Below are positions 33,913 through 43,364 of a stretch of DNA of 64,000 nucleotides, piece by piece (position 1 is the first letter of the stretch; every line of letters begins with the position of its first letter). The translations under genes were made by a program, and so were the position numbers. Below the pieces are notes generated by a model that was not told the origin of the DNA, did not search any database, and saw only the letters and a list, made by a program, of their open reading frames with translations. The stretch comes from a phage, in NCBI GenBank assembly GCA_018509705.1, contig GCA_018509705.1_3630.1. One strand, given 5' to 3'.

Positions 33913-33989
33913 TGGTCTCCACGGAGTGATTCGAACACTCGACCTCCTGATCCCAAATCAGGCGCTCTACCAAGCTGAGCTACGCGGAG
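33913..33989 (-). tRNA. tRNA-Pro (anticodon UGG)
   Basis: Hand-folded cloverleaf: acceptor CTCCGCG, D-loop TAGCTCAG, anticodon loop TTTGGGA, T-loop GGTTCGAATC, encoded CCA. Confidence 0.8.
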
Positions 33990-34000
33990 TATTTATTATT

Positions 34001-34075
34001 TGGTGGCCCTGGGTGGAATTGAACCACCGTCTGGCGATTATGAGTCGCTTGCTTGAACCTTCCAGCTACAGGGCC
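34001..34075 (-). tRNA. tRNA with CAU anticodon (Met, or Ile2 lysidine-type)
   Basis: Acceptor GGCCCTG/CAGGGCC, anticodon arm GCGA-CTCATAA-TCGC, T-loop TTCAATT, encoded CCA. Confidence 0.75.
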
Positions 34076-34076
34076 A

Positions 34077-34152
34077 TGGTGCTGATGGCAGGACTTGAAC
34101 CTGCAACCTATTGATTACAAATCAATTGCACTACCAATTGTGCTACATCAGC
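34077..34152 (-). tRNA. tRNA-Thr (anticodon UGU)
   Basis: Acceptor GCTGATG/CATCAGC, D-stem GCAC/GTGC, anticodon arm ATTGA-TTTGTAA-TCAAT, T-arm GCAGG-TTCAAGT-CCTGC, CCA. Confidence 0.8.
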
Positions 34153-34157
34153 AAAAA

Positions 34158-34256
34158 GGTGCTAGGTGATGGAATCGAACCACCTATGTATTCAACGACT
34201 ACCTCGTCTATTTTCAGGATTAAAAATCCTCGCCCTTGCCAAAGGGCTTACCTAGC
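34158..34256 (-). tRNA. atypical tRNA-like gene (about 99 nt; isotype unresolved)
   Basis: Good acceptor (GCTAGGT/ACCTAGC) and T-arm (GGTGG-TTCGATT-CCATC), but about 24 extra nt between D and T arms; anticodon arm ambiguous (AGGAT-TTTTA-ATCCT or 4-bp stem with UUU). Confidence 0.3.
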
Positions 34257-34354
34257 TCAGTATGTTGACCATGTTGCTAGTCGGCGATGACGACTGTAAC
34301 ATTTGATAATCCGGTTCTGCTTCCGGCTTTCGCTTAATTACAAGGTCAACAATA

Positions 34355-34445
34355 TGGCTGAGGGTAATGGAATCGAACCATCATCAAGTCATCCTCAACG
34401 GGACGGTTTTCAAGACCGCTTGAGCACCATTGCTCCCTACCCTCA
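34355..34445 (-). tRNA. tRNA-Ser (anticodon UGA), long variable arm
   Basis: Acceptor TGAGGGT/ACCCTCA, anticodon arm GCGGT-CTTGAAA-ACCGT, long variable arm, T-loop TTCGATT, CCA. Confidence 0.7.
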
Positions 34446-34559
34446 TTTATAAACAATACTGATAATGACACTGATTTTCGAGCAGTTAGTGACTAGTATA
34501 AACGACGATAAATATCAATGCCATTATCTGTATGATTTATGCATTTAAAACTATAAATT

Positions 34560-34646
34560 TGGTGGGGAGTGGTGGAGTCGAACCACCCGAGTCGCAATGA
34601 CAATAGATTTACAGTCTACACCGCTACCCCTACGGGATAACTCCCC
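34560..34646 (-). tRNA. tRNA-Tyr (anticodon GUA), long variable arm
   Basis: Acceptor GGGGAGT/ACTCCCC, anticodon arm GTAGA-CTGTAAA-TCTAT, T-arm GGTGG-TTCGACT-CCACC, CCA. Confidence 0.7.
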
Positions 34647-34650
34647 AATT

Positions 34651-34725
34651 TGGCACCCCGTACTGGACTCGAACCAGTGTCAACGGCTTAGAAGGCCGCT
34701 GCTTTATCCACTAAGCTAACAGGGC
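34651..34725 (-). tRNA. tRNA-Arg (anticodon UCU)
   Basis: Acceptor GCCCTGT (two G-U pairs), D-stem GCTT/AAGC, anticodon arm GCGGC-CTTCTAA-GCCGT, T-arm ACTGG-TTCGAGT-CCAGT, CCA. Confidence 0.75.
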
Positions 34726-35823: not shown

Positions 35824-36033
35824 TCAACAGATTCCGGCCTTATCCTTCCTGTCTGCGTATTCTTTAATCGCAACCTCATCTGCATTAGTGACCAGGTCTT
35901 CAAAGTAACTCTCAAGCTCCTCGTCAATGTCAGGAGACCAGCTCTTTTTCCTGTCAGTGTGAATTGCAGACTTGTTGAACTTATTACAGTTCTTTGCTAC
36001 CGGGTTGTTCATTAAGCGCTCCTCAGCGTTCAT
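35824..36033 (-). CDS. hypothetical protein
   Basis: ORF track; overlaps the upstream gene end. Confidence 0.25.
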   Translation of the reverse strand: MNAEERLMNNPVAKNCNKFNKSAIHTDRKKSWSPDIDEELESYFEDLVTNADEVAIKEYADRKDKAGIC

Positions 36034-36601
36034 AGTAAATCTTATTTAACATTACCTCATCCTTTGCAGAAAGGATATCAAGATATGCATCACCAAATCT
36101 TCCTGCAACAACCTCTGCATGATACATCACTTCGTTAACATCGTCAAGAGTGATAACCGGATGACCATATCTTTCTGAATATTGTCTCAGGGTGCGATGT
36201 AACGAGTCGTCATCATATGCAGACTTTTTAATATCACAAACACGACGAATAGCCTTGATGTCGAAAAAACCTGTGCGATACCACCCAAGAAAAAGGTTTC
36301 GTGCAGTGTCAACATCTACATTGATACCATCAAGAACCTTATCTACAAGATAGCTGTCATCCTTTGGACCAGCGTCCTTAGTGCGAATGTAGTTGCCATC
36401 TTTTCCAGGCGACATCTCCTTCTCATCCCCAACCTGAATGCCATCATTTGGCGGTGTTAGCCACTTATCCGGATGCTTACGATCACGAGCGTTAGAATGA
36501 TTACGCTGGAAACCGGGCTTCCACTTGAAAGTTTTCTCCATCTGTTCTTCATTCTGATAACGTTTTGCAATCTTTTCACGGTCATCTTTGCGTGAACCCA
36601 T
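36023..36601 (-). CDS. hypothetical protein
   Basis: ORF track; GGAGG-like site upstream. Confidence 0.35.
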   Translation of the reverse strand: MGSRKDDREKIAKRYQNEEQMEKTFKWKPGFQRNHSNARDRKHPDKWLTPPNDGIQVGDEKEMSPGKDGNYIRTKDAGPKDDSYLVDKVLDGINVDVDTARNLFLGWYRTGFFDIKAIRRVCDIKKSAYDDDSLHRTLRQYSERYGHPVITLDDVNEVMYHAEVVAGRFGDAYLDILSAKDEVMLNKIYYER

Positions 36602-37104
36602 AGCTGCCTCCTCTTCAAGTTATAGAAAAACTAACTGTATCGCTTTGTAACGAGCTTTTCTATCAAACTGGTGCGATTGCATTACCTGGTATAGTTTATA
36701 TAGCTGTGGAGCGATTTAGGTGCCTTCTTGTCCGTTTCCACACATAAACTTCATCCAAGCTCGCGCGGGAGACTCTCAACCGACTCCTTCCGGCGCTGGC
36801 AAGCTTTCGTCGGTGGTCCACATCAGTGCTCGGCCTTTGGCCTGCGCTATCGCTTCGCTCTCACACATGTTAACAGACCTGCATGTATGCACTTCTGTTA
36901 TTGTGTGCACCAGGGAGGCCCGGCATCTCGCCCCTCGTAGGCGAGTGCCAATGAAGGGCCGACACTACCCATAGTAAGTAATAAATTTAAAACATGGTAC
37001 TTAGGATCTAATATATTCTACATAAGTTAAGTATATGTACTTAGTACCATAAGTACTAGATCTTTTGTTTTTTATTATTTAGTTATTTTAGTTATATTCT
37101 TTAT

Positions 37105-37148
37105 GTGTCCGTATCACGGACAGTTAGTGTCCGTATTACGGACAGTTA
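37105..37148. repeat. two tandem 22-bp palindromic units (candidate operator or iteron sites)
   Basis: gtgtccgtatcacggacagtta then gtgtccgtattacggacagtta; each contains the 7-bp inverted repeat TGTCCGT/ACGGACA; AT-rich agttatttt repeats just upstream. Confidence 0.5.
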
Positions 37149-37219
37149 CTAACCTCTGTTCCAGAGCGAACATAAAACATACGAATCCTTATAGTACAGA
37201 TATTTAAGTTTTTACTGGT

Positions 37220-37570
37220 CTAACCAGTTGTTGACATTCGAATAACTTCTTCTGGTGGCAAAACTTTGGAAAATGTGCATCTTTTACCTCTCCCTTGTGT
37301 GGATATTTCAACCACTCCCGCACATTCTAAAGTTTTAACGCACGCTGCTGCTTTTGTTTTCTTTATTCCAACATCTGCTGCAATTTTCCTTGTGCTGGGT
37401 GTGAAGCGTGAACTTCCTCCAAGCTTATACCAGTTGTGCAGGTAGCAGTATACGATCTTGTCATACAAGTCAAGAACAACAACCTCCCCAGTTGTGTCAT
37501 TCAAAACTTTTGACATAGATAGTATTTCAAGGGGGACTTTAAGATATAGCAGCTTATCCCCATCTTTCAT
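37220..37570 (-). CDS. hypothetical protein with helix-turn-helix-like segment
   Basis: STRKIAADVGIKKTKAAACVKTLECAGVVEIS resembles a winged-helix/HTH DNA-binding segment; weak. Confidence 0.3.
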   Translation of the reverse strand: MKDGDKLLYLKVPLEILSMSKVLNDTTGEVVVLDLYDKIVYCYLHNWYKLGGSSRFTPSTRKIAADVGIKKTKAAACVKTLECAGVVEISTQGRGKRCTFSKVLPPEEVIRMSTTG

Positions 37571-37617
37571 ATCTCCTGATTCTCCTTGTGTGGCAATTTT
37601 CTTTAAAATAGCAGGGA

Positions 37618-38172
37618 TTACTCCCCGCTGTCAATAGCAAAACTCATTGCAATACGGTATGCCTCTTCTAATGGTAAGAGTCTCCCCCACACATCCCAAC
37701 CGACATCAAACTGTCTGCCAAACAACTGTTGTGTGGTTCCGTGAGCATGACCGAACAGTTGGACTGATCCGTGAGGCTTTCTGTTCCACTTTGCAAACTG
37801 GTAATGGCTCATACAGATCAAATTCTTGTTGTGGCGAAGCTCGTAATAATCTACAACCTCATGACCGAACTCTTTCATAATTCTGACAGTCGTCCTTGTG
37901 TCATGGTTACCACGAACAAGAATAATATGTCCGTTCAACATATTTAGAACATCTGGGAGCAATTTGTTGATATTCTTATCATTAGTGCACGCAATATCTC
38001 CCAAGTGAAACACAGTGTCTGCAGGTGACACAACAGAGTTCCACTTGGTGATGATTCCCGCATTCATACTGTCAAGATTGTGATCATACTGAGATCTGTG
38101 TTTTTGACATGAGTCGAACTCCATGACCCGCTGGTGGAGAAAGTGTGTGTCGCTTGTTACAAAGTATTTCAT
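37618..38172 (-). CDS. calcineurin-like metallophosphoesterase (possible polynucleotide 3'-phosphatase)
   Basis: Motifs VTSDTHF, GDIACTNDKN and LVRGNHD; track ORF trimmed to the ATG just downstream of the kinase stop. Confidence 0.55.
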   Translation of the reverse strand: MKYFVTSDTHFLHQRVMEFDSCQKHRSQYDHNLDSMNAGIITKWNSVVSPADTVFHLGDIACTNDKNINKLLPDVLNMLNGHIILVRGNHDTRTTVRIMKEFGHEVVDYYELRHNKNLICMSHYQFAKWNRKPHGSVQLFGHAHGTTQQLFGRQFDVGWDVWGRLLPLEEAYRIAMSFAIDSGE

Positions 38173-38179
38173 ACATTCC

Positions 38180-38590
38180 TCATTTAAGTTTAATGCAGTT
38201 TTTAAGCTGGCGTTCCATACGATCCACAACCCTGTCTGGAACATCATGAATGCTTTTATTACCATGGCGGTTTTCAACCACGATCACGGTATAACTATAC
38301 CCATGACTGATCGCCATGTCAATATATTCTTGCACATATTTTTCTTTTGTAAACGTATTACTTACCACGATACGGTCGTATCCCATACGCATCATATCTT
38401 CTACGTTATCTTTGCACCATTTTGCTGCAAGTGTTACTTTACTTGCATCCCAGTTGTAATTTCCATCATCGTCGTACCAGAACATGTCGTTCTCAAAATG
38501 TGGATACAGACCTTCTAAAGATAGCGCATTTGCCAGTGTTGATTTGCCAGACCCTGGTAGACCACGCACGATATATAGCATTTTAGACAT
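38180..38590 (-). CDS. P-loop kinase (polynucleotide kinase-like)
   Basis: Walker A MLYIVRGLPGSGKSTLA close to the N-terminus; start placed at the ATG preceded by GGAGGA. Confidence 0.5.
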   Translation of the reverse strand: MSKMLYIVRGLPGSGKSTLANALSLEGLYPHFENDMFWYDDDGNYNWDASKVTLAAKWCKDNVEDMMRMGYDRIVVSNTFTKEKYVQEYIDMAISHGYSYTVIVVENRHGNKSIHDVPDRVVDRMERQLKNCIKLK

Positions 38591-38650
38591 AGTAATCCTC
38601 CGTTTTAATTTCAACGATAGTATACCCAACTGTTTTGTTAATTTCAAGTG

Positions 38651-38680
38651 TTGACACTAGGTTATTTGTGTGGCAGGATA
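38651..38680 (+). promoter_or_regulatory. candidate sigma70-like promoter for the plus-strand early gene block
   Basis: TTGACA at 38651-38656; downstream -10 is weak (caggat/gataga), so the call is tentative. Confidence 0.3.
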
Positions 38681-38690
38681 GACTGACAAA

Positions 38691-39626
38691 ATGACAAATG
38701 AGGAATGTATAATGAAGTATTTTAATGCAGACGACCTAGTTGACAAAGGTCTTGTAACCAGCAGATATTACCCAGATCTTGGGTTAAAGATCTATAAATA
38801 TGCCAGAAAAGTATTCTACAACAACTTATGGCATTTGTCTCCTCGATTACTGGAGTGCCGAGGCATTGTTGTCGGTAATGAAGGAAATGTTGTGGCATGG
38901 CCCTTCACAAAAGTGTTTAACTTGGGAGAAAACTCCACCAACCTGCCTGACAATAAGCTTGTGACGGCGGTAGAGAAAAAGAACGGATTCCTTGGTGTGG
39001 TGTCATCTCATAAAGGTGAACTATTGTTCTCAACAACCGGGTCTCTTGATTCTCCATATTGTAACCTTGCAAAGGAAACCATCCAGGAGCAATGCAGTAA
39101 TTTAGATCTTATCAAGAAGGTTATGGGCAATGAAAACATGACATTCATGTTTGAAATTTGTCACCCTTCAGATCCGCATATTGTTCAGGAAGATCATGGT
39201 GCATATTTGATAGGTTGCAGATATAATGATTCTGGAATAATGCTACCAGAAGCAGCTTTAGATGGGATTGCCAAATACCTTGGTGCAAAACGTCCTCACA
39301 CTGTGCGTGAAATTCCGTTCAGTTATGCAAAAGAATTGGCTGCAGAAACAAGAGGTGAAGGGTATATGATTCGTAAGCCTTACTACCCTTATGATCTGCA
39401 GCTGAAGATTAAGTCTCCATACTATCTGGCACGGAAGGCCGTAATGAGGGGTAAAGCTTGGAAGATTTGGGATGATGATATCTTTAAACGTGTTGACGAA
39501 GAGTTTTACGGCATGGTAAACTTCATTCGTAACAACTACACAGAGGATGTATGGAACTGCCTCCTGGAGCAGGAACGCCGTGAGATACTTGATTACTATT
39601 TCCACAACGAGAACTATATGCAATGA
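38691..39626 (+). CDS. RNA ligase (nucleotidyltransferase superfamily)
   Basis: Motif I-like VEKKNGF, motif IV-like GEGYMIRKP, motif V-like LQLKIKSP; adjacent to kinase/phosphatase and the tRNA cluster. Confidence 0.55.
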   Translation: MTNEECIMKYFNADDLVDKGLVTSRYYPDLGLKIYKYARKVFYNNLWHLSPRLLECRGIVVGNEGNVVAWPFTKVFNLGENSTNLPDNKLVTAVEKKNGFLGVVSSHKGELLFSTTGSLDSPYCNLAKETIQEQCSNLDLIKKVMGNENMTFMFEICHPSDPHIVQEDHGAYLIGCRYNDSGIMLPEAALDGIAKYLGAKRPHTVREIPFSYAKELAAETRGEGYMIRKPYYPYDLQLKIKSPYYLARKAVMRGKAWKIWDDDIFKRVDEEFYGMVNFIRNNYTEDVWNCLLEQERREILDYYFHNENYMQ

Positions 39627-39973
39627 AGAAGTTGATTGTGTGGCTAGATGACTTGAGAGATCCGTCAAATTATGGGCTCCCAGACGCTATTTGGCTAAAG
39701 AATTCCTCCGAGTTTATGGATTTTATTAACGATAATAAAAAGCTCTACAGACGCGTTTCTGAGTGGCATATGGACAACGACCTTGGAGAGGTATTCGAAG
39801 GGTACGATTGCCTATCCATGTTGGAGGAAAAGTTTGTATTTGGTAAGCCTCCTGTAGTTGACAACGTGAAGATTTTCGTGCATACTTCTAACCCATCAGC
39901 GGCTCGTAAATTCATGCTTGCGACTGACTCGTTTAAAAAGTTTGGAATAGAGATTAAACAAAACATCTACTGA
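39623..39973 (+). CDS. hypothetical protein (116 aa)
   Basis: ORF track; overlaps the RNA ligase stop and precedes the Sir2-like gene. Confidence 0.4.
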   Translation: MKKLIVWLDDLRDPSNYGLPDAIWLKNSSEFMDFINDNKKLYRRVSEWHMDNDLGEVFEGYDCLSMLEEKFVFGKPPVVDNVKIFVHTSNPSAARKFMLATDSFKKFGIEIKQNIY

Positions 39974-39981
39974 GGACACTT

Positions 39982-40743
39982 ATGCGACGACTGATTGTTA
40001 TCTCCGGTGCTGGTTTGAGTGCTGAATCTGGTATTCCCACTTTCCGATCTGGTAGCACTGCAATGTGGGAGAATTTCAGCATCGATGAGGTGTGCAACAT
40101 CCACACCTTTGCCAAGAACTACTATAAGGTGCATGACTTTTACAATGCACGTCGTGTAGCTTTAGGCAGTGTTGAGCCTAACCTTGCACATCTTCGGATC
40201 GCTGAGTGGTATTCCCGCTGGTCTGGTCGTGTGATCAACCTTACCACCAATGTAGATGATTTGCTGGAGCGTGCTGGTGTAAAACATGAAGATATTTTAC
40301 ATGTCCACGGGTATTTGCCAGAAATAGTCTATGAGGACGATGAAGGAAGTGACGTCATTAAGGACATTGGATACTCTGAGGTAGACGCAGGAAAGTATAC
40401 CTGGGTTAAGCCTAATGTGGTGTTCTTCGGAGAAGTAGCTCCGAAGTATACAGACATGTATGACCTGTTGACTTCTCTTACGAGCAATGATATGGTTATC
40501 CTTGTAGGGTGCTCCAACACAGTTATCAATTTTAACTGGGAGCTATTCCCTGCCTGCAATAAGGGAACCAAACTACTGATCGTTAATAAATACGACTCAC
40601 AGCATCTAGAGGAGAATGGCATTTCACGTAGTGATATTTACCAGTATGAGGATCGCGGCATCCCAGTTTGGTTTAACGGTGCGGTTGATGCCTTCTCTGA
40701 TAAAACATTCATTGAGACTGTAGAAAACTTTATGGAACTTTAA
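39982..40743 (+). CDS. Sir2-family NAD-dependent deacylase / ADP-ribosyltransferase-like protein
   Basis: N-terminal GAGLSAESGIPTFRSG motif and HVHG catalytic-His motif; Zn-ribbon cysteines not evident. Confidence 0.65.
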   Translation: MRRLIVISGAGLSAESGIPTFRSGSTAMWENFSIDEVCNIHTFAKNYYKVHDFYNARRVALGSVEPNLAHLRIAEWYSRWSGRVINLTTNVDDLLERAGVKHEDILHVHGYLPEIVYEDDEGSDVIKDIGYSEVDAGKYTWVKPNVVFFGEVAPKYTDMYDLLTSLTSNDMVILVGCSNTVINFNWELFPACNKGTKLLIVNKYDSQHLEENGISRSDIYQYEDRGIPVWFNGAVDAFSDKTFIETVENFMEL

Positions 40744-40756
40744 AAGGAGACCTTTA

Positions 40757-41470
40757 ATGCTGAATACTAAATTAATTGACAACCTGGAAAAACTATCCCA
40801 ACCTGAAAACTACCTTTGGTCTGCCAACTGGGTGGAAAACTGGAACCGTGTGGCAGCTAAAGTGAAAAAATCATACACACCATTCGAATTACAGCTTAGC
40901 TTCATTGAGGAAGAGTTCAATGAAGTTTTGGAAGAGCTGGAGAAAGGTGATGGTGGAGATCACCTGCTAAAAGAGGCCTGCGATCTTCACGTTGTCACAA
41001 GTTATGCAGCTTATCTTGTTAATGACAATCACGAAAAGTGGTCAAACCTGTTTGATAATCCACGAGGTCTTAAGTTCAAGATCGGTGAGTTCTATGACAC
41101 ACTGATCGCTGCGAAAAACACATCCAAGCAAAGAGCGTCAGCTTACCGTTTAGCGGAGTTGTCAACAGCTTTGCTGTTCCAGCTTCGCGGCGATGTGTGC
41201 GGGATGATGCGTAAGGTTCTCAAATCGAATGACAGCAAGTTTGCACGGGTCAACCATCTACGGTATTCACACGGTGCCAGTGCAGATATGCCTGCTGAAC
41301 AACTCATCGAGTTGGAGATTAAAGATCTTGAGCGACGCTTTGATGGTCGATATGAAGGTTTTGTTGCTAAGGAAGAATTCTACAACGGTAATAAAGTTAT
41401 CATATTCCTCGACAGTAAAGGTAAGATTATGAAGCCTTCAAGCTTCAAGGATGTAACAGAATATATTTAA
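40757..41470 (+). CDS. hypothetical protein, possible MazG-like nucleotide pyrophosphohydrolase domain
   Basis: Glu-rich segment SFIEEEFNEVLEELEKGD...LKEACDL resembles all-alpha NTP pyrophosphatase metal-binding motifs; weak. Confidence 0.3.
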   Translation: MLNTKLIDNLEKLSQPENYLWSANWVENWNRVAAKVKKSYTPFELQLSFIEEEFNEVLEELEKGDGGDHLLKEACDLHVVTSYAAYLVNDNHEKWSNLFDNPRGLKFKIGEFYDTLIAAKNTSKQRASAYRLAELSTALLFQLRGDVCGMMRKVLKSNDSKFARVNHLRYSHGASADMPAEQLIELEIKDLERRFDGRYEGFVAKEEFYNGNKVIIFLDSKGKIMKPSSFKDVTEYI

Positions 41471-41477
41471 TAATATA

Positions 41478-41505
41478 GCCGGGGCGATCCCGGCTTTACT
41501 TGTTT
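41478..41505 (+). terminator. hairpin plus T-rich tail
   Basis: gccggggcgatcccggc followed by tttacttgttt. Confidence 0.4.
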
Positions 41506-41534
41506 CGGAAAGTATGCAAGTGAGGTAGAAAGTT

Positions 41535-41843
41535 ATGTACAAGCACTCCAGAGATCTTGAAAACGATGCTGTGTTTGGGGATCAGATGAAAGAATTGGTT
41601 AAACTTATAGGTAGGATAGAGGATAAGTTTGACACTAAGATCTACATCGACAGCAAAGTATTCAACCACAAAATATGGACAAATCTGTGTGTTGGACTAC
41701 ATGGAGATAAAGATGTGGTAAATTTAGTTGTAATTAAGTTCATAGTGTGGCAGAATAAAACTATAAATTATTACGATCCACACCTGCTTGTTTACCCGAT
41801 AAAAGACCTATTAGAGAAGGAGGACTGCAATGCCGTTATTTAA
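41535..41843 (+). CDS. hypothetical protein
   Basis: ORF track; AGGTAGAAAG-type RBS. Confidence 0.35.
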   Translation: MYKHSRDLENDAVFGDQMKELVKLIGRIEDKFDTKIYIDSKVFNHKIWTNLCVGLHGDKDVVNLVVIKFIVWQNKTINYYDPHLLVYPIKDLLEKEDCNAVI

Positions 41844-42099
41844 TCTTGCTAAACCTGTAGAAGCACACCAGTTTGACGGAAGCTCTTCATCAGTATCTGA
41901 TCTGCAACGGTGGATTGATACAGGTGTGTTTACATCGTCACCTGTTCGGACCAGAGATCTTCGTCGTATGTGTGAGCTTGTAGAGCCGTTTGGTAACCTA
42001 GTCTTGTACCAGGGTGATTGGCTTGTTGATTTTATGGGTGACTGGTTGGTAATGAGTAAAGAAGAGATGTTTAAAATTTTTAAGGAAGAGGTAGAGTAA
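41830..42099 (+). CDS. hypothetical protein
   Basis: ORF track; coupled to neighbours. Confidence 0.35.
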   Translation: MPLFNLAKPVEAHQFDGSSSSVSDLQRWIDTGVFTSSPVRTRDLRRMCELVEPFGNLVLYQGDWLVDFMGDWLVMSKEEMFKIFKEEVE

Positions 42100-43364
42100 T
42101 GCATCAATTCAAAACAACACTTTATGCTCGCAATAAAGACGGGTCCATCCAGATGTGGAAAGTAGATACAAGCGGCAACGAGGTTATTGTTGTGTTCGGC
42201 AGGGTTGGTGGCGCTGTACAATCAAAAACCACAAAATGTGAAGCCAAAAACATCGGGCGATCCAACGAAACTACAGCAGAAGAACAAGCTGTTTTAGAGG
42301 CGCAGTCTAAATGGGAAAAGCAAGTCCGGCTGGGTTACAAAGAAAATGTCGAAGACCTTGAGGCCATTGACATTTCACCTATGCTGGCGCAAGATGCTTC
42401 GAAAAAACCACACGCTATTGTGTATCCATGCCACCTGCAACACAAACTTGACGGGAACCGTTGCTTTGTCAAATTCGTAGACGGTGTACCTAAATTCATC
42501 TCTCGCGGTAACAAAGTGTATGAGCCGAAAGGTAACATCCTCCGTGAGCTACAAGACCTGCATGAAGAAACAGGCTTTGATGAATTTGATGGGGAGTTCT
42601 ACATTCACGGTTTACCGTTGCAGAAAATAACCTCCCTCGTTAAGAAATGGCGTAGTCTGGAAGACATTGAGAAAGAAATTGATAAGGATTTCATGGCAGA
42701 CATAAAACGCCGTGAGAAAGCGATCAAGGCCGGAGAGGAGACATGGAAAGACTTCAACAAGGTTGATCATCCGGTTTATGAAGAACCTGTCCGTGATTCT
42801 GATCGGTATGGAGGTTACTGCTCTTATGACCTGAAACTGATGGTGTTCGATGTTCCTGATTGCATCCATCGCTGGGAAGATCGGGCCACAAATCTTCAGG
42901 AAGTTATTGATTATTGTGAAGTTAACCATCTCACAAACGTCGAGGGTGTTCCTTTCAAGATCGCCTACAACGAGGAAGAGGTTCGCAACTCCATCGGACA
43001 GTACATGCAGGAAGGTTATGAAGGATCTATTATTCGTAACTTCTGTGGCACCTACGAATACGGTCAACGCTCTACTGATCTGCTCAAGTGGAAACTGTTC
43101 ACCGATGTTGAAGCAAAAGTGATCGGTGTTGAAAAAGATAAAAACGGGGAAGGTGTTCTTATCTGCGAAGAGAAAGATGGGACACAATGCAAATGCAAAA
43201 TGAAAGGCACTTTTGCCGTAAGGAACTACGAAAAATGCTGCTCATATGTTGGCAAATTTATCACGATAAAATTCCAACAGCGTACGGTGGACGGTGTGCC
43301 TCAATTCCCTGTGGGTATCGCATTCCGCAATCTTAATCCAGAAACTTGGGAGGTGCTGGAATAA
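42099..43364 (+). CDS. ATP-dependent DNA ligase
   Basis: Adenylation motif I PCHLQHKLDGNRCF (KxDGxR) and further nucleotidyltransferase motifs; 421 aa. Confidence 0.7.
   Translation: MHQFKTTLYARNKDGSIQMWKVDTSGNEVIVVFGRVGGAVQSKTTKCEAKNIGRSNETTAEEQAVLEAQSKWEKQVRLGYKENVEDLEAIDISPMLAQDASKKPHAIVYPCHLQHKLDGNRCFVKFVDGVPKFISRGNKVYEPKGNILRELQDLHEETGFDEFDGEFYIHGLPLQKITSLVKKWRSLEDIEKEIDKDFMADIKRREKAIKAGEETWKDFNKVDHPVYEEPVRDSDRYGGYCSYDLKLMVFDVPDCIHRWEDRATNLQEVIDYCEVNHLTNVEGVPFKIAYNEEEVRNSIGQYMQEGYEGSIIRNFCGTYEYGQRSTDLLKWKLFTDVEAKVIGVEKDKNGEGVLICEEKDGTQCKCKMKGTFAVRNYEKCCSYVGKFITIKFQQRTVDGVPQFPVGIAFRNLNPETWEVLE

Follow-up and report, generated by a model that had tools for sequence, protein, structure and literature searches.

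The DNA analysed in this study is a stretch of 64,000 nucleotides (hereafter the window) from contig GCA_018509705.1_3630.1 of the NCBI GenBank assembly GCA_018509705.1, and it derives from an rV5-type phage (Vequintavirus) of E. coli. The initial annotation of the window had pointed to a trio of genes, a P-loop kinase and a calcineurin-type metallophosphoesterase on the minus strand, divergent from a nucleotidyltransferase-type ligase on the plus strand, as the enzyme set of an RNA heal-and-seal pathway. The three open reading frames are present (37618-38277 and 38180-38647 on the minus strand, 38691-39626 on the plus strand) and carry the quoted motifs, namely HLGDIACTND and RGNHD in the phosphoesterase, RGLPGSGKST in the kinase, and VEKKNG, EGYMIRKP and LQLKIKS in the ligase. 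The trio is real, but the repair unit is larger and consists of a ligase-cREC-sirtuin-MazG operon together with the kinase and the phosphoesterase, six genes in 37618-41470. On the evidence of sequence families, structure models and gene linkage, this module is probably a multi-enzyme RNA repair pathway of the rV5-type phage, acting most plausibly on tRNA. The genes and other features considered in this study were as follows.

37618-38172, minus strand: metallophosphoesterase, 184 amino acids, ATG at 38172
38180-38590, minus strand: stand-alone P-loop kinase, 136 amino acids, ATG at 38590
38591-38711: divergent spacer of 121 bp between kinase and ligase, presumed promoter region
38712-39626, plus strand: short Rnl1-type ATP-dependent RNA ligase, 304 amino acids, ATG at 38712
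39623-39973, plus strand: cREC domain protein (PF20274), 116 amino acids
39982-40743, plus strand: sirtuin (SIR2 family) without the zinc-binding cysteines, 253 amino acids
40757-41470, plus strand: MazG-like nucleotide pyrophosphohydrolase, 237 amino acids, last gene of the plus-strand operon
41477-41495: terminator-like, bidirectional GC-rich hairpin, AGCCGGGGCGATCCCGGCT followed by a T-rich tail, from a terminator scan
42099-43364, plus strand: context gene, ATP-dependent DNA ligase, 421 amino acids, Pfam DNA_ligase_A_M and OB_2, phrog_114 at 4e-79
33913-34725, minus strand: context, cluster of 7 tRNA genes, from ARAGORN, Rfam and the annotation of phage RudolfGeigy

Start codons were chosen from the ribosome-binding sites and public annotation; an alternative upstream ATG of the ligase at 38691 would give a protein of 311 amino acids. 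The phosphoesterase starts 7 nt from the kinase stop, with the same minus-strand orientation, and kinase and ligase diverge from the spacer between their starts. All three proteins passed the Pfam gathering thresholds (28.5 bits against a cut-off of 27 for Metallophos_2, 41.1 against 27 for AAA_33 and 57 against 28.3 for RNA_lig_T4_1) and matched PHROG families with E values from 5e-51 to 1e-66, and the trio was therefore not considered a chance finding. More than 100 Escherichia phage genomes, among them rV5_ev147, slur16 and the BASEL phages RudolfGeigy and MaxBurger, match positions 37000-41500 from end to end at 97-98% identity. A second copy of any module gene or a ligase of the PF09414 type was not found within the window.

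The ligase matched Pfam RNA_lig_T4_1 (PF09511) at 3.3e-15 and phrog_562 at 1e-66. Searches of the PDB with single sequences were uninformative for the ligase and the kinase, and family profiles were needed for both. The ligase profile, built from 16 homologues, matched T4 Rnl1 (2c5u) at 3e-29 over nearly the full length, and further matches were fungal Trl1 (2.5e-8), archaeal Rnl3 (Pab1020, 1.5e-5) and, at 2e-4, a Palaeococcus homologue of Rnl3 whose PDB title reads 'ATP dependent DNA ligase'. A profile placement among the DNA ligases, set beforehand as a result that would refute the initial annotation, was thus not obtained. The AlphaFold (AF2) model of the ligase has a predicted local distance difference test score (pLDDT) of 90.8, and its best Foldseek matches were the ligase domain of Trl1 and T4 Rnl1, at about 5e-12, with DNA ligases solved together with DNA at 1.7e-5 or above, at least six orders of magnitude behind. 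Nucleotidyltransferase motifs I, III, IV and V are invariant in the ligase family (K89-K-N-G92, F147-E148, E216-G217 and K232-I-K234). Residues R50, K67 and F69 are also invariant and correspond in the profile alignment to the ECRG and EKFFN segments of T4; we take them to be the counterparts of R54, K75 and F77, presumably the essential upstream residues specific to Rnl1. Altogether, ten of the 11 T4 Rnl1 residues that we regard as essential are invariant in the family, the exception being K119, which is replaced by Thr109. Sequence profile and model together point to a ligase that groups with T4 Rnl1 and fungal Trl1 and not with DNA ligases. It is not an equivalog of T4 RnlA, scoring 40 bits against a cut-off of 242 for the NCBIfam equivalog TIGR02308. 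The homologue search yielded 438 clusters, and all contigs among the matches listed were of phage size; the ligase apparently belongs to a short (about 290-320 amino acids), phage-specific subfamily of the Rnl1 type.

The kinase matched AAA_33 at 2.7e-10, phrog_2071 at 2e-58 and phrog_505, named 'polynucleotide kinase', at 3e-10. It belongs to a family of stand-alone kinases of about 130 amino acids with more than 7,900 matches, in which the P-loop G10-L-P-G13-S-G15-K16-S17-T18 is invariant. The top PDB match of the kinase profile was the Mucorales tRNA-splicing 5'-OH kinase, which rests mainly on the P-loop, and the best matches extending past the P-loop, all to RNA, tRNA or polynucleotide kinases, were Pnkp1, PSTK, T4 Pnk and CthPnk; the match to nicotinamide riboside kinase was confined to the P-loop, with E values of 0.05-0.09. 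Alignment of the kinase with residues 1-154 of T4 Pnk by hhalign, for which the T4 Pnk sequence was checked against the T4 gene (100% identity), gave a probability of 96% and an E value of 3.5e-9. In this alignment the invariant Asp35 of the kinase falls on Asp35 of T4 Pnk, the catalytic general base (Asp38 in the Cth enzyme), and the invariant Arg108 falls on T4 Arg122. His109 and His115 are invariant as well and are particular to this kinase family. CthPnk and T4 Pnk were the best Foldseek matches of the AlphaFold model (pLDDT 86), with template modelling (TM) scores, normalised by the query, of 0.75-0.79 (0.76-0.78 for CthPnk), followed by PSTK (0.71-0.74) and Pnkp1 (0.72); UMP-CMP, gluconate, shikimate and adenylate kinases reached 0.43-0.61. 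A profile placement as an unrelated nucleotide kinase, the second result that would have spoken against the initial annotation, was not observed either. These data support the assignment of the kinase as a minimal member of the polynucleotide-kinase clade and not as a small-molecule kinase, and we infer that its substrate is RNA with a 5'-OH end, which makes it a candidate 5'-OH RNA kinase.

The phosphoesterase matched Pfam Metallophos_2 and Metallophos, and phrog_547 at 5e-51. All five calcineurin metal-binding motifs are present, namely D8-T-H10 (DxH), G58-D59, G88-N89-H90-D, H123 and G141-H142-A-H144, and the gene is separate from that of the kinase, so that the phosphatase is, as proposed, a metallophosphoesterase on its own polypeptide, unlike in T4 Pnk. 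The closest solved structure is Aquifex aq_1665 (1xm7), which was matched at 7e-11 with the single sequence and at 4e-17 with the profile, and the profile search of the PDB returned only aq_1665, GpdQ, MJ0936 and Vps29. By these matches the phosphoesterase is classified as aq_1665-like and placed outside the lambda-phosphatase/CthPnkp clade. As CthPnkp and lambda phosphatase show, metallophosphoesterases are able to carry out both healing steps on 2',3'-cyclic ends (PMC2190708). The phosphoesterase of the window is a candidate 2',3'-cyclic phosphodiesterase and 2'/3'-phosphomonoesterase for the healing of 3' ends.

Three further proteins are encoded downstream of the ligase. The ATG of the cREC gene overlaps the stop codon of the ligase (ATGA), and the two genes are translationally coupled. 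The cREC (cyclic-phosphate-processing receiver-like) protein matched Pfam PF20274 cREC_REC at 1.7e-14 (54.7 bits against a cut-off of 27) and phrog_1479 at 2.7e-35, and residues D9, D10, R12, P14, D51, D53, H87 and N90 are invariant; its profile found no significant solved relative in the PDB. The cREC domain and its linkage to RNA ligases were introduced by Iyer et al. 2021 (PMC7824862). Members of this family have conserved acidic residues and accompany RNA ligase or NAD+ genes, and in no case a histidine kinase; in the window, SIR2 comes after the cREC gene, which is itself coupled to the ligase. The sirtuin matched Pfam SIR2 at 3e-27 and phrog_2162 at 1e-109, with E. coli CobB (1s5p) as the best PDB match at 1.7e-21. 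In the alignment to 1s5p it retains GAGxS, TxNxD and the catalytic HG, and it is assigned to a zinc-less sirtuin clade because the cysteines at the zinc-binding positions of CobB are replaced. The MazG-like protein matched phrog_671, 'nucleotide pyrophosphohydrolase', at 5e-22, had no Pfam match, and lies in the same neighbourhood in related phages. The sirtuin and the MazG-like enzyme are likely accessories of the pathway.

Gene linkage was analysed in 84 viral loci that carry a homologue of the kinase at 42-51% identity, or at 81% and 97% in the case of two close relatives. A phosphoesterase homologue was present within 8 kb in 60 of the 84 loci, always on the same strand as the kinase and directly adjacent to it in 26. 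An RNA ligase was present within the same distance in 51 loci, being of the Rnl1 type in 27, of the PF09414 type with a PHA02142 OB-fold (oligonucleotide/oligosaccharide-binding fold) in 26 and Rnl2-like in one, and a DNA ligase homologue was present in 8. Where the Rnl1-type ligase is absent, the kinase-phosphoesterase pair adjoins other RNA ligases (L014 9054-10181, L022 5929-7071, L059 3197-4237 and 24 more loci). The RNA ligase family is, as judged from these neighbourhoods, swapped within a conserved context, and the finding of different RNA ligase families beside the same pair argues more strongly than any other indirect evidence for a role of the pair in healing RNA ends. Relatives L085-L090 carry co-oriented clusters in the order metallophosphoesterase-ligase-cREC-kinase-(SIR2)-DNA ligase-MazG, with the DNA ligase adjacent, and this co-oriented order was seen in related phages of about 94-153 kb, phage 4MG included; the rV5 order is thus a rearranged version in which the genes have stayed adjacent. 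The ligase and kinase genes are also adjacent in the unrelated phages K8 (Pakpunavirus) and KIT04 (T5-like, Vibrio).

The distribution of the two families was then compared in a database of isolate phages (50,697 records) by counts per host genus, which are not overlaps at the level of single records. The numbers of records with ligase and kinase, respectively, were 199 and 198 for Escherichia, 177 and 173 for Pseudomonas, 83 and 89 for Vibrio, 37 and 36 for Klebsiella, 24 and 24 for Acinetobacter, 14 and 14 for Salmonella, and 13 and 13 for Aeromonas. The phosphoesterase family is broader and was found in 1,355 records.

Two side observations were made in these neighbourhoods. Genes for Prs-like (ribose-phosphate pyrophosphokinase) and NAMPT/NAPRTase-like proteins follow the ligase-kinase pair in Pseudomonas phage K8 (L114, 3968-8148), in KIT04 (L115, 3995-8912) and in L003 (5799-9435), and genes for NAD+ salvage or reconstitution are a recurring theme beside the repair module. 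In metagenomic phages, two recurrent proteins are encoded between or after the kinase and phosphoesterase genes, one of about 366 amino acids (L013 2052-3149, 13 loci) and one of about 414 amino acids (L002 7082-8323, 18 loci); neither has a Pfam match or a match to a PHROG of known function, and the L013 protein matches two PHROGs of 'unknown function'.

From family membership and gene linkage, the best-supported interpretation of the module is a predicted pathway that heals and seals RNA cut by metal-independent RNases. The heal-and-seal proposal of the initial annotation thus gains support from profiles, AlphaFold models, fold searches and linkage, from which RNA repair activity is deduced. 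In the proposed pathway, the cREC protein, the metallophosphoesterase or both would open the 2',3'-cyclic phosphate, and the metallophosphoesterase would take the phosphate off. The mini polynucleotide kinase would then phosphorylate the 5'-OH, and the Rnl1-type ligase would self-adenylylate at Lys89, pass the AMP to the 5'-phosphate and seal the break. For the sirtuin, NAD+-dependent removal of a residual 2'-phosphate, as by KptA/Tpt1, has been proposed (PMC9503650). A bolder version, in which the zinc-less sirtuin is an NAD+-dependent RNA 2'-phosphotransferase analogous to Tpt1/KptA and cREC is a cyclic phosphodiesterase that leaves a 2'-phosphate, would amount to a yeast-like tRNA repair of the Trl1/Tpt1 style, built from unrelated folds; this idea, too, had been put forward by Iyer et al. 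2022, and we consider it speculative and rather unlikely. If it were true, 2'-phosphotransfer would be a new activity for the sirtuin fold and cREC would gain its first activity.

Several observations weigh against the reading as RNA repair. In the ligase, Lys119 of T4 (the K of SKGS) is replaced by Thr109 in S-T-T109-G-S; the Thr is near-invariant in the short subfamily, and the long subfamily has R or K at this position. Only about 70 residues follow motif V, compared with about 130 in T4, and Foldseek aligned 229-240 columns to T4 Rnl1, so that the C-terminal domain of the T4 enzyme has no counterpart; this all-helical domain confers tRNA specificity on T4 Rnl1. Arg38, Asp85, Arg122 and Arg126 are essential in T4 Pnk, and Arg38 contacts the polynucleotide. 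In the kinase, Arg38 corresponds to Trp38 (Phe in the kinase family), Asp85 to the invariant Asn78, and Arg126 to Lys112 in a variable column. The sole close solved relative of the phosphoesterase, aq_1665, is an uncharacterized protein, and no chain of a Pnkp phosphatase or of lambda phosphatase was found at E values up to 0.1 in its profile search of the PDB. Among the 84 kinase loci, 33 had no ligase in the available flank, many of these being ended by contig ends, and phages of Streptomyces have the ligase without a kinase of this family. The module adjoins NAD+-related genes, which is compatible with a function in nucleotide or NAD+ metabolism. In the literature, no experimental work was found on RNA repair in rV5 or Vequintavirinae, on phage sirtuins in RNA repair or on cREC, the only sources being two surveys by the Aravind group.

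Some of these points would fit a different account, in which the kinase, the phosphoesterase and cREC act on small molecules (NAD+/ADP-ribose derivatives, cyclic nucleotide signals or nucleotide pools) within an NAD+-centred counter-defence island and the ligase is a mere neighbour. The operon does hold a sirtuin and a MazG-like pyrophosphatase, the Prs-like and NAMPT/NAPRTase-like genes adjoin the ligase-kinase pair in K8, KIT04 and L003, and the kinase lacks an equivalent of the polynucleotide-contacting Arg38 of T4 Pnk. The Aravind group, moreover, counts cREC among the predicted processors of ADP-ribose derivatives and names the kinase simply 'nucleotide kinase'. This account is nevertheless unlikely, as the kinase is nearest in sequence and fold to polynucleotide and tRNA kinases, with nicotinamide riboside kinase matched in the P-loop alone, and the counts of kinase and RNA ligase per host genus are near-identical; the presence of three RNA ligase families beside the same pair is hard to explain unless the ligase is a functional partner.

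The kinase and phosphoesterase could instead heal DNA ends (5'-OH and 3'-phosphate) for the nearby DNA ligase in the repair of nicks or breaks in phage DNA. An ATP-dependent DNA ligase is a conserved neighbour, both in the window and in L085-L090, T4 Pnkp is generally known to work on DNA besides RNA, and the phosphoesterase has a weak match to PdeM, the ligase-associated DNA damage response phosphoesterase. That match scores 20.6 bits, however, far under the cut-off of 150, and a DNA ligase lies within 8 kb of the kinase in 8 of the 84 loci, against 51 for an RNA ligase; in K8 and KIT04 it is the RNA ligase and not a DNA ligase that adjoins the kinase. We hold a role in DNA repair to be quite improbable, and the DNA ligase of the window is probably outside the RNA pathway. 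It is very improbable that the ligase serves mainly as a catalyst of tail-fibre attachment, the second activity of T4 gp63/Rnl1, with the kinase and phosphoesterase as unrelated early genes. The best PHROG of the ligase bears the name 'RNA ligase and tail fiber protein attachment catalyst', which many GenBank records have taken over, but the name is inherited from T4. The ligase lies among early and metabolic genes and not among tail genes, co-occurs with the kinase and is coupled to cREC, and the invariance of the presumed essential Rnl1 residues implies selection for ligase chemistry. The data on fold, residues and linkage fit all three alternatives less well than RNA repair.

The RNA repair module in the window is not a new idea. 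Iyer, Burroughs, Anantharaman and Aravind (2022, Viruses 14:1977, PMC9503650) described computationally a sirtuin-centred RNA repair neighbourhood of type 2, with Escherichia phage V5 as a prototype, in which a sirtuin is linked to cREC, MazG, a T4-like tRNA ligase, a nucleotide kinase and, optionally, a calcineurin-like phosphoesterase. The window has all six and is an instance of this neighbourhood with no essential difference. RNA ligase, phosphoesterase, polynucleotide kinase and Sir2 are labels already given in GenBank. The module is thus a real, ordinary and already described, predicted RNA repair module, and with its genes annotated and the neighbourhood published, little is added as discovery. 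Beyond the published description, our analysis adds that fold and catalytic Asp assign the kinase to the polynucleotide-kinase clade, that the host-genus counts match, that RNA ligase families are swapped beside the kinase-phosphoesterase pair and that the gene order of rV5-type phages is rearranged and divergent.

Compared with the Pnkp and Rnl1 of T4, which repair tRNA-Lys against PrrC, the module shares the Rnl1-family motifs, a kinase of the same P-loop clade with equivalents of Asp35 and Arg122, and the heal-then-seal logic. In T4 the kinase is fused to a HAD (DxDxT) phosphatase, whereas the module has a stand-alone kinase and, as phosphatase candidate, a metallophosphoesterase encoded by a gene of its own; T4 Rnl1 has 374 amino acids, and the ligase of 304 amino acids is without the T4-like C-terminal domain and has Thr for Lys119. 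The T4 repair pathway has no counterpart of cREC, the sirtuin or MazG. The likeness to bacterial Pnkp/Hen1 systems (Clostridium thermocellum Pnkp; Capnocytophaga Pnkp1-Rnl-Hen1) that had been suggested holds for the domain content of kinase, metallophosphoesterase and ligase at the superfamily level, but does not extend to the clades, as the phosphoesterase is aq_1665-like and the ligase is of the Rnl1 type. Bacterial Pnkp is, furthermore, one kinase-phosphatase-ligase polypeptide that works with the 2'-O-methyltransferase Hen1, whereas here three open reading frames are found, two on the minus and one on the plus strand. No methyltransferase domain that could correspond to Hen1 was detected, and indeed none of any kind, by Pfam or PHROG among nine neighbouring proteins spanning 36023-43364. 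Fungal and plant Trl1 and Tpt1 are paralleled by the Trl1 ligase domain among the top structural matches, by the Mucorales kinase as the top match of the kinase profile and by a possible NAD+-dependent step. Trl1, however, is a single polypeptide with a 2H cyclic phosphodiesterase, a position taken here by cREC and the metallophosphoesterase, and Tpt1/KptA has an ADP-ribosyltransferase fold, in contrast to the sirtuin that is the NAD+ enzyme of the module.

Defences that cleave tRNA form a major class of bacterial immunity against phages, and the known answers of phages are replacement tRNAs and the Pnkp/Rnl1 repair pair of T4. The module described here would represent a second, differently built repair kit. 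It is widespread, the kinase and ligase being found in over 600 sequenced phages that infect E. coli, Pseudomonas, Vibrio, Klebsiella and Acinetobacter, some of them of types studied as therapeutic candidates. If active, the module would influence the host range of phages where tRNA-targeting defences are present. It is also a clean system in which activities could be assigned to cREC and to the zinc-less sirtuin, and E. coli with rV5-type phages such as those of the BASEL collection is tractable.

Signals for expression were searched around the divergent genes. A sigma-70-like site on the minus strand from 38647 to 38619 (TTGAAA-17-TATACT, 10/12) lies upstream of the kinase and is presumed to be a candidate kinase promoter. 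On the plus strand, no sigma-70-like site above the scan threshold was found in the spacer for the ligase, and the TTGACA at 38652 lacks an acceptable -10 element. Ribosome-binding sites precede the ATG of the kinase (GGAGGA) and of the ligase (GAGGA). The hairpin at 41477-41495, a match to the consensus only, would end the plus-strand operon of ligase, cREC, SIR2 and MazG.

A perfect 15-nt inverted repeat, AAATGAGGAATGTAT, is present at 38171-38185 on the minus strand and at 38696-38710 on the plus strand, and these are its only 2 copies in the window, where 0.04 would be expected; phage RudolfGeigy retains the repeat with one mismatch. Its arms lie where translation of the phosphoesterase and of the ligase is initiated, bracketing the kinase gene and the spacer; one arm holds the kinase stop codon and a ribosome-binding site, and the other arm holds the same ribosome-binding site. 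The phosphoesterase and ligase proteins both open with MKYF. The repeat may have been left behind by the rearrangement, or it may serve both genes as a translational control site or operator. Another inverted repeat, of 17 nt with 16/17 identical positions (37997-38013 and 38913-38929, on opposite strands, in the phosphoesterase and ligase coding sequences), was not considered meaningful; it is probably a coincidence, because both copies encode family-conserved motifs, VFHLGD in the phosphoesterase and VFNLGE in the ligase.

The tRNA cluster, which the initial annotation had placed beside the trio, lies 2.9 kb from the phosphoesterase gene, with a helix-turn-helix gene and several small open reading frames in between, so that 'beside' is only loosely true. 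Its members are Pro(UGG), a CAU tRNA (Met or Ile2), Thr(UGU), an aberrant Lys(UUU)-like tRNA, Ser(UGA), Tyr(GUA) and Arg(UCU). The aberrant tRNA (34158-34256, minus strand) is 97-99 nt long, and its anticodon loop UUUUUAA reads as Lys(UUU). The D stem has 6 bp and a loop of 4 nt, the anticodon stem is weak, the extra arm is long and the fold z-score is -3.7; the tRNA is unnamed by ARAGORN, scores 35.5 bits as tRNA in Rfam and is annotated as tRNA-Lys in the BASEL phage. As tRNA-Lys(UUU) is the classic target of anticodon nucleases, it could be a nuclease-resistant or decoy tRNA. The CAU tRNA (34001-34075, minus strand) is Met according to ARAGORN and tRNA-Ile (ATA) according to the BASEL annotation of its orthologue, and it may be a lysidine-type tRNA-Ile2. 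An Rfam match to 'Plastid-ycf2' on the strand opposite this tRNA looks spurious, as it did not reach its gathering score.

Some 20 records under the name 'Campylobacter phage', listing C. jejuni as host (e.g. MG065655.1, MG065635.1 and MG065666.1), are 97-99% identical to the window across the module, and they are likely mislabelled or contaminating coliphage.

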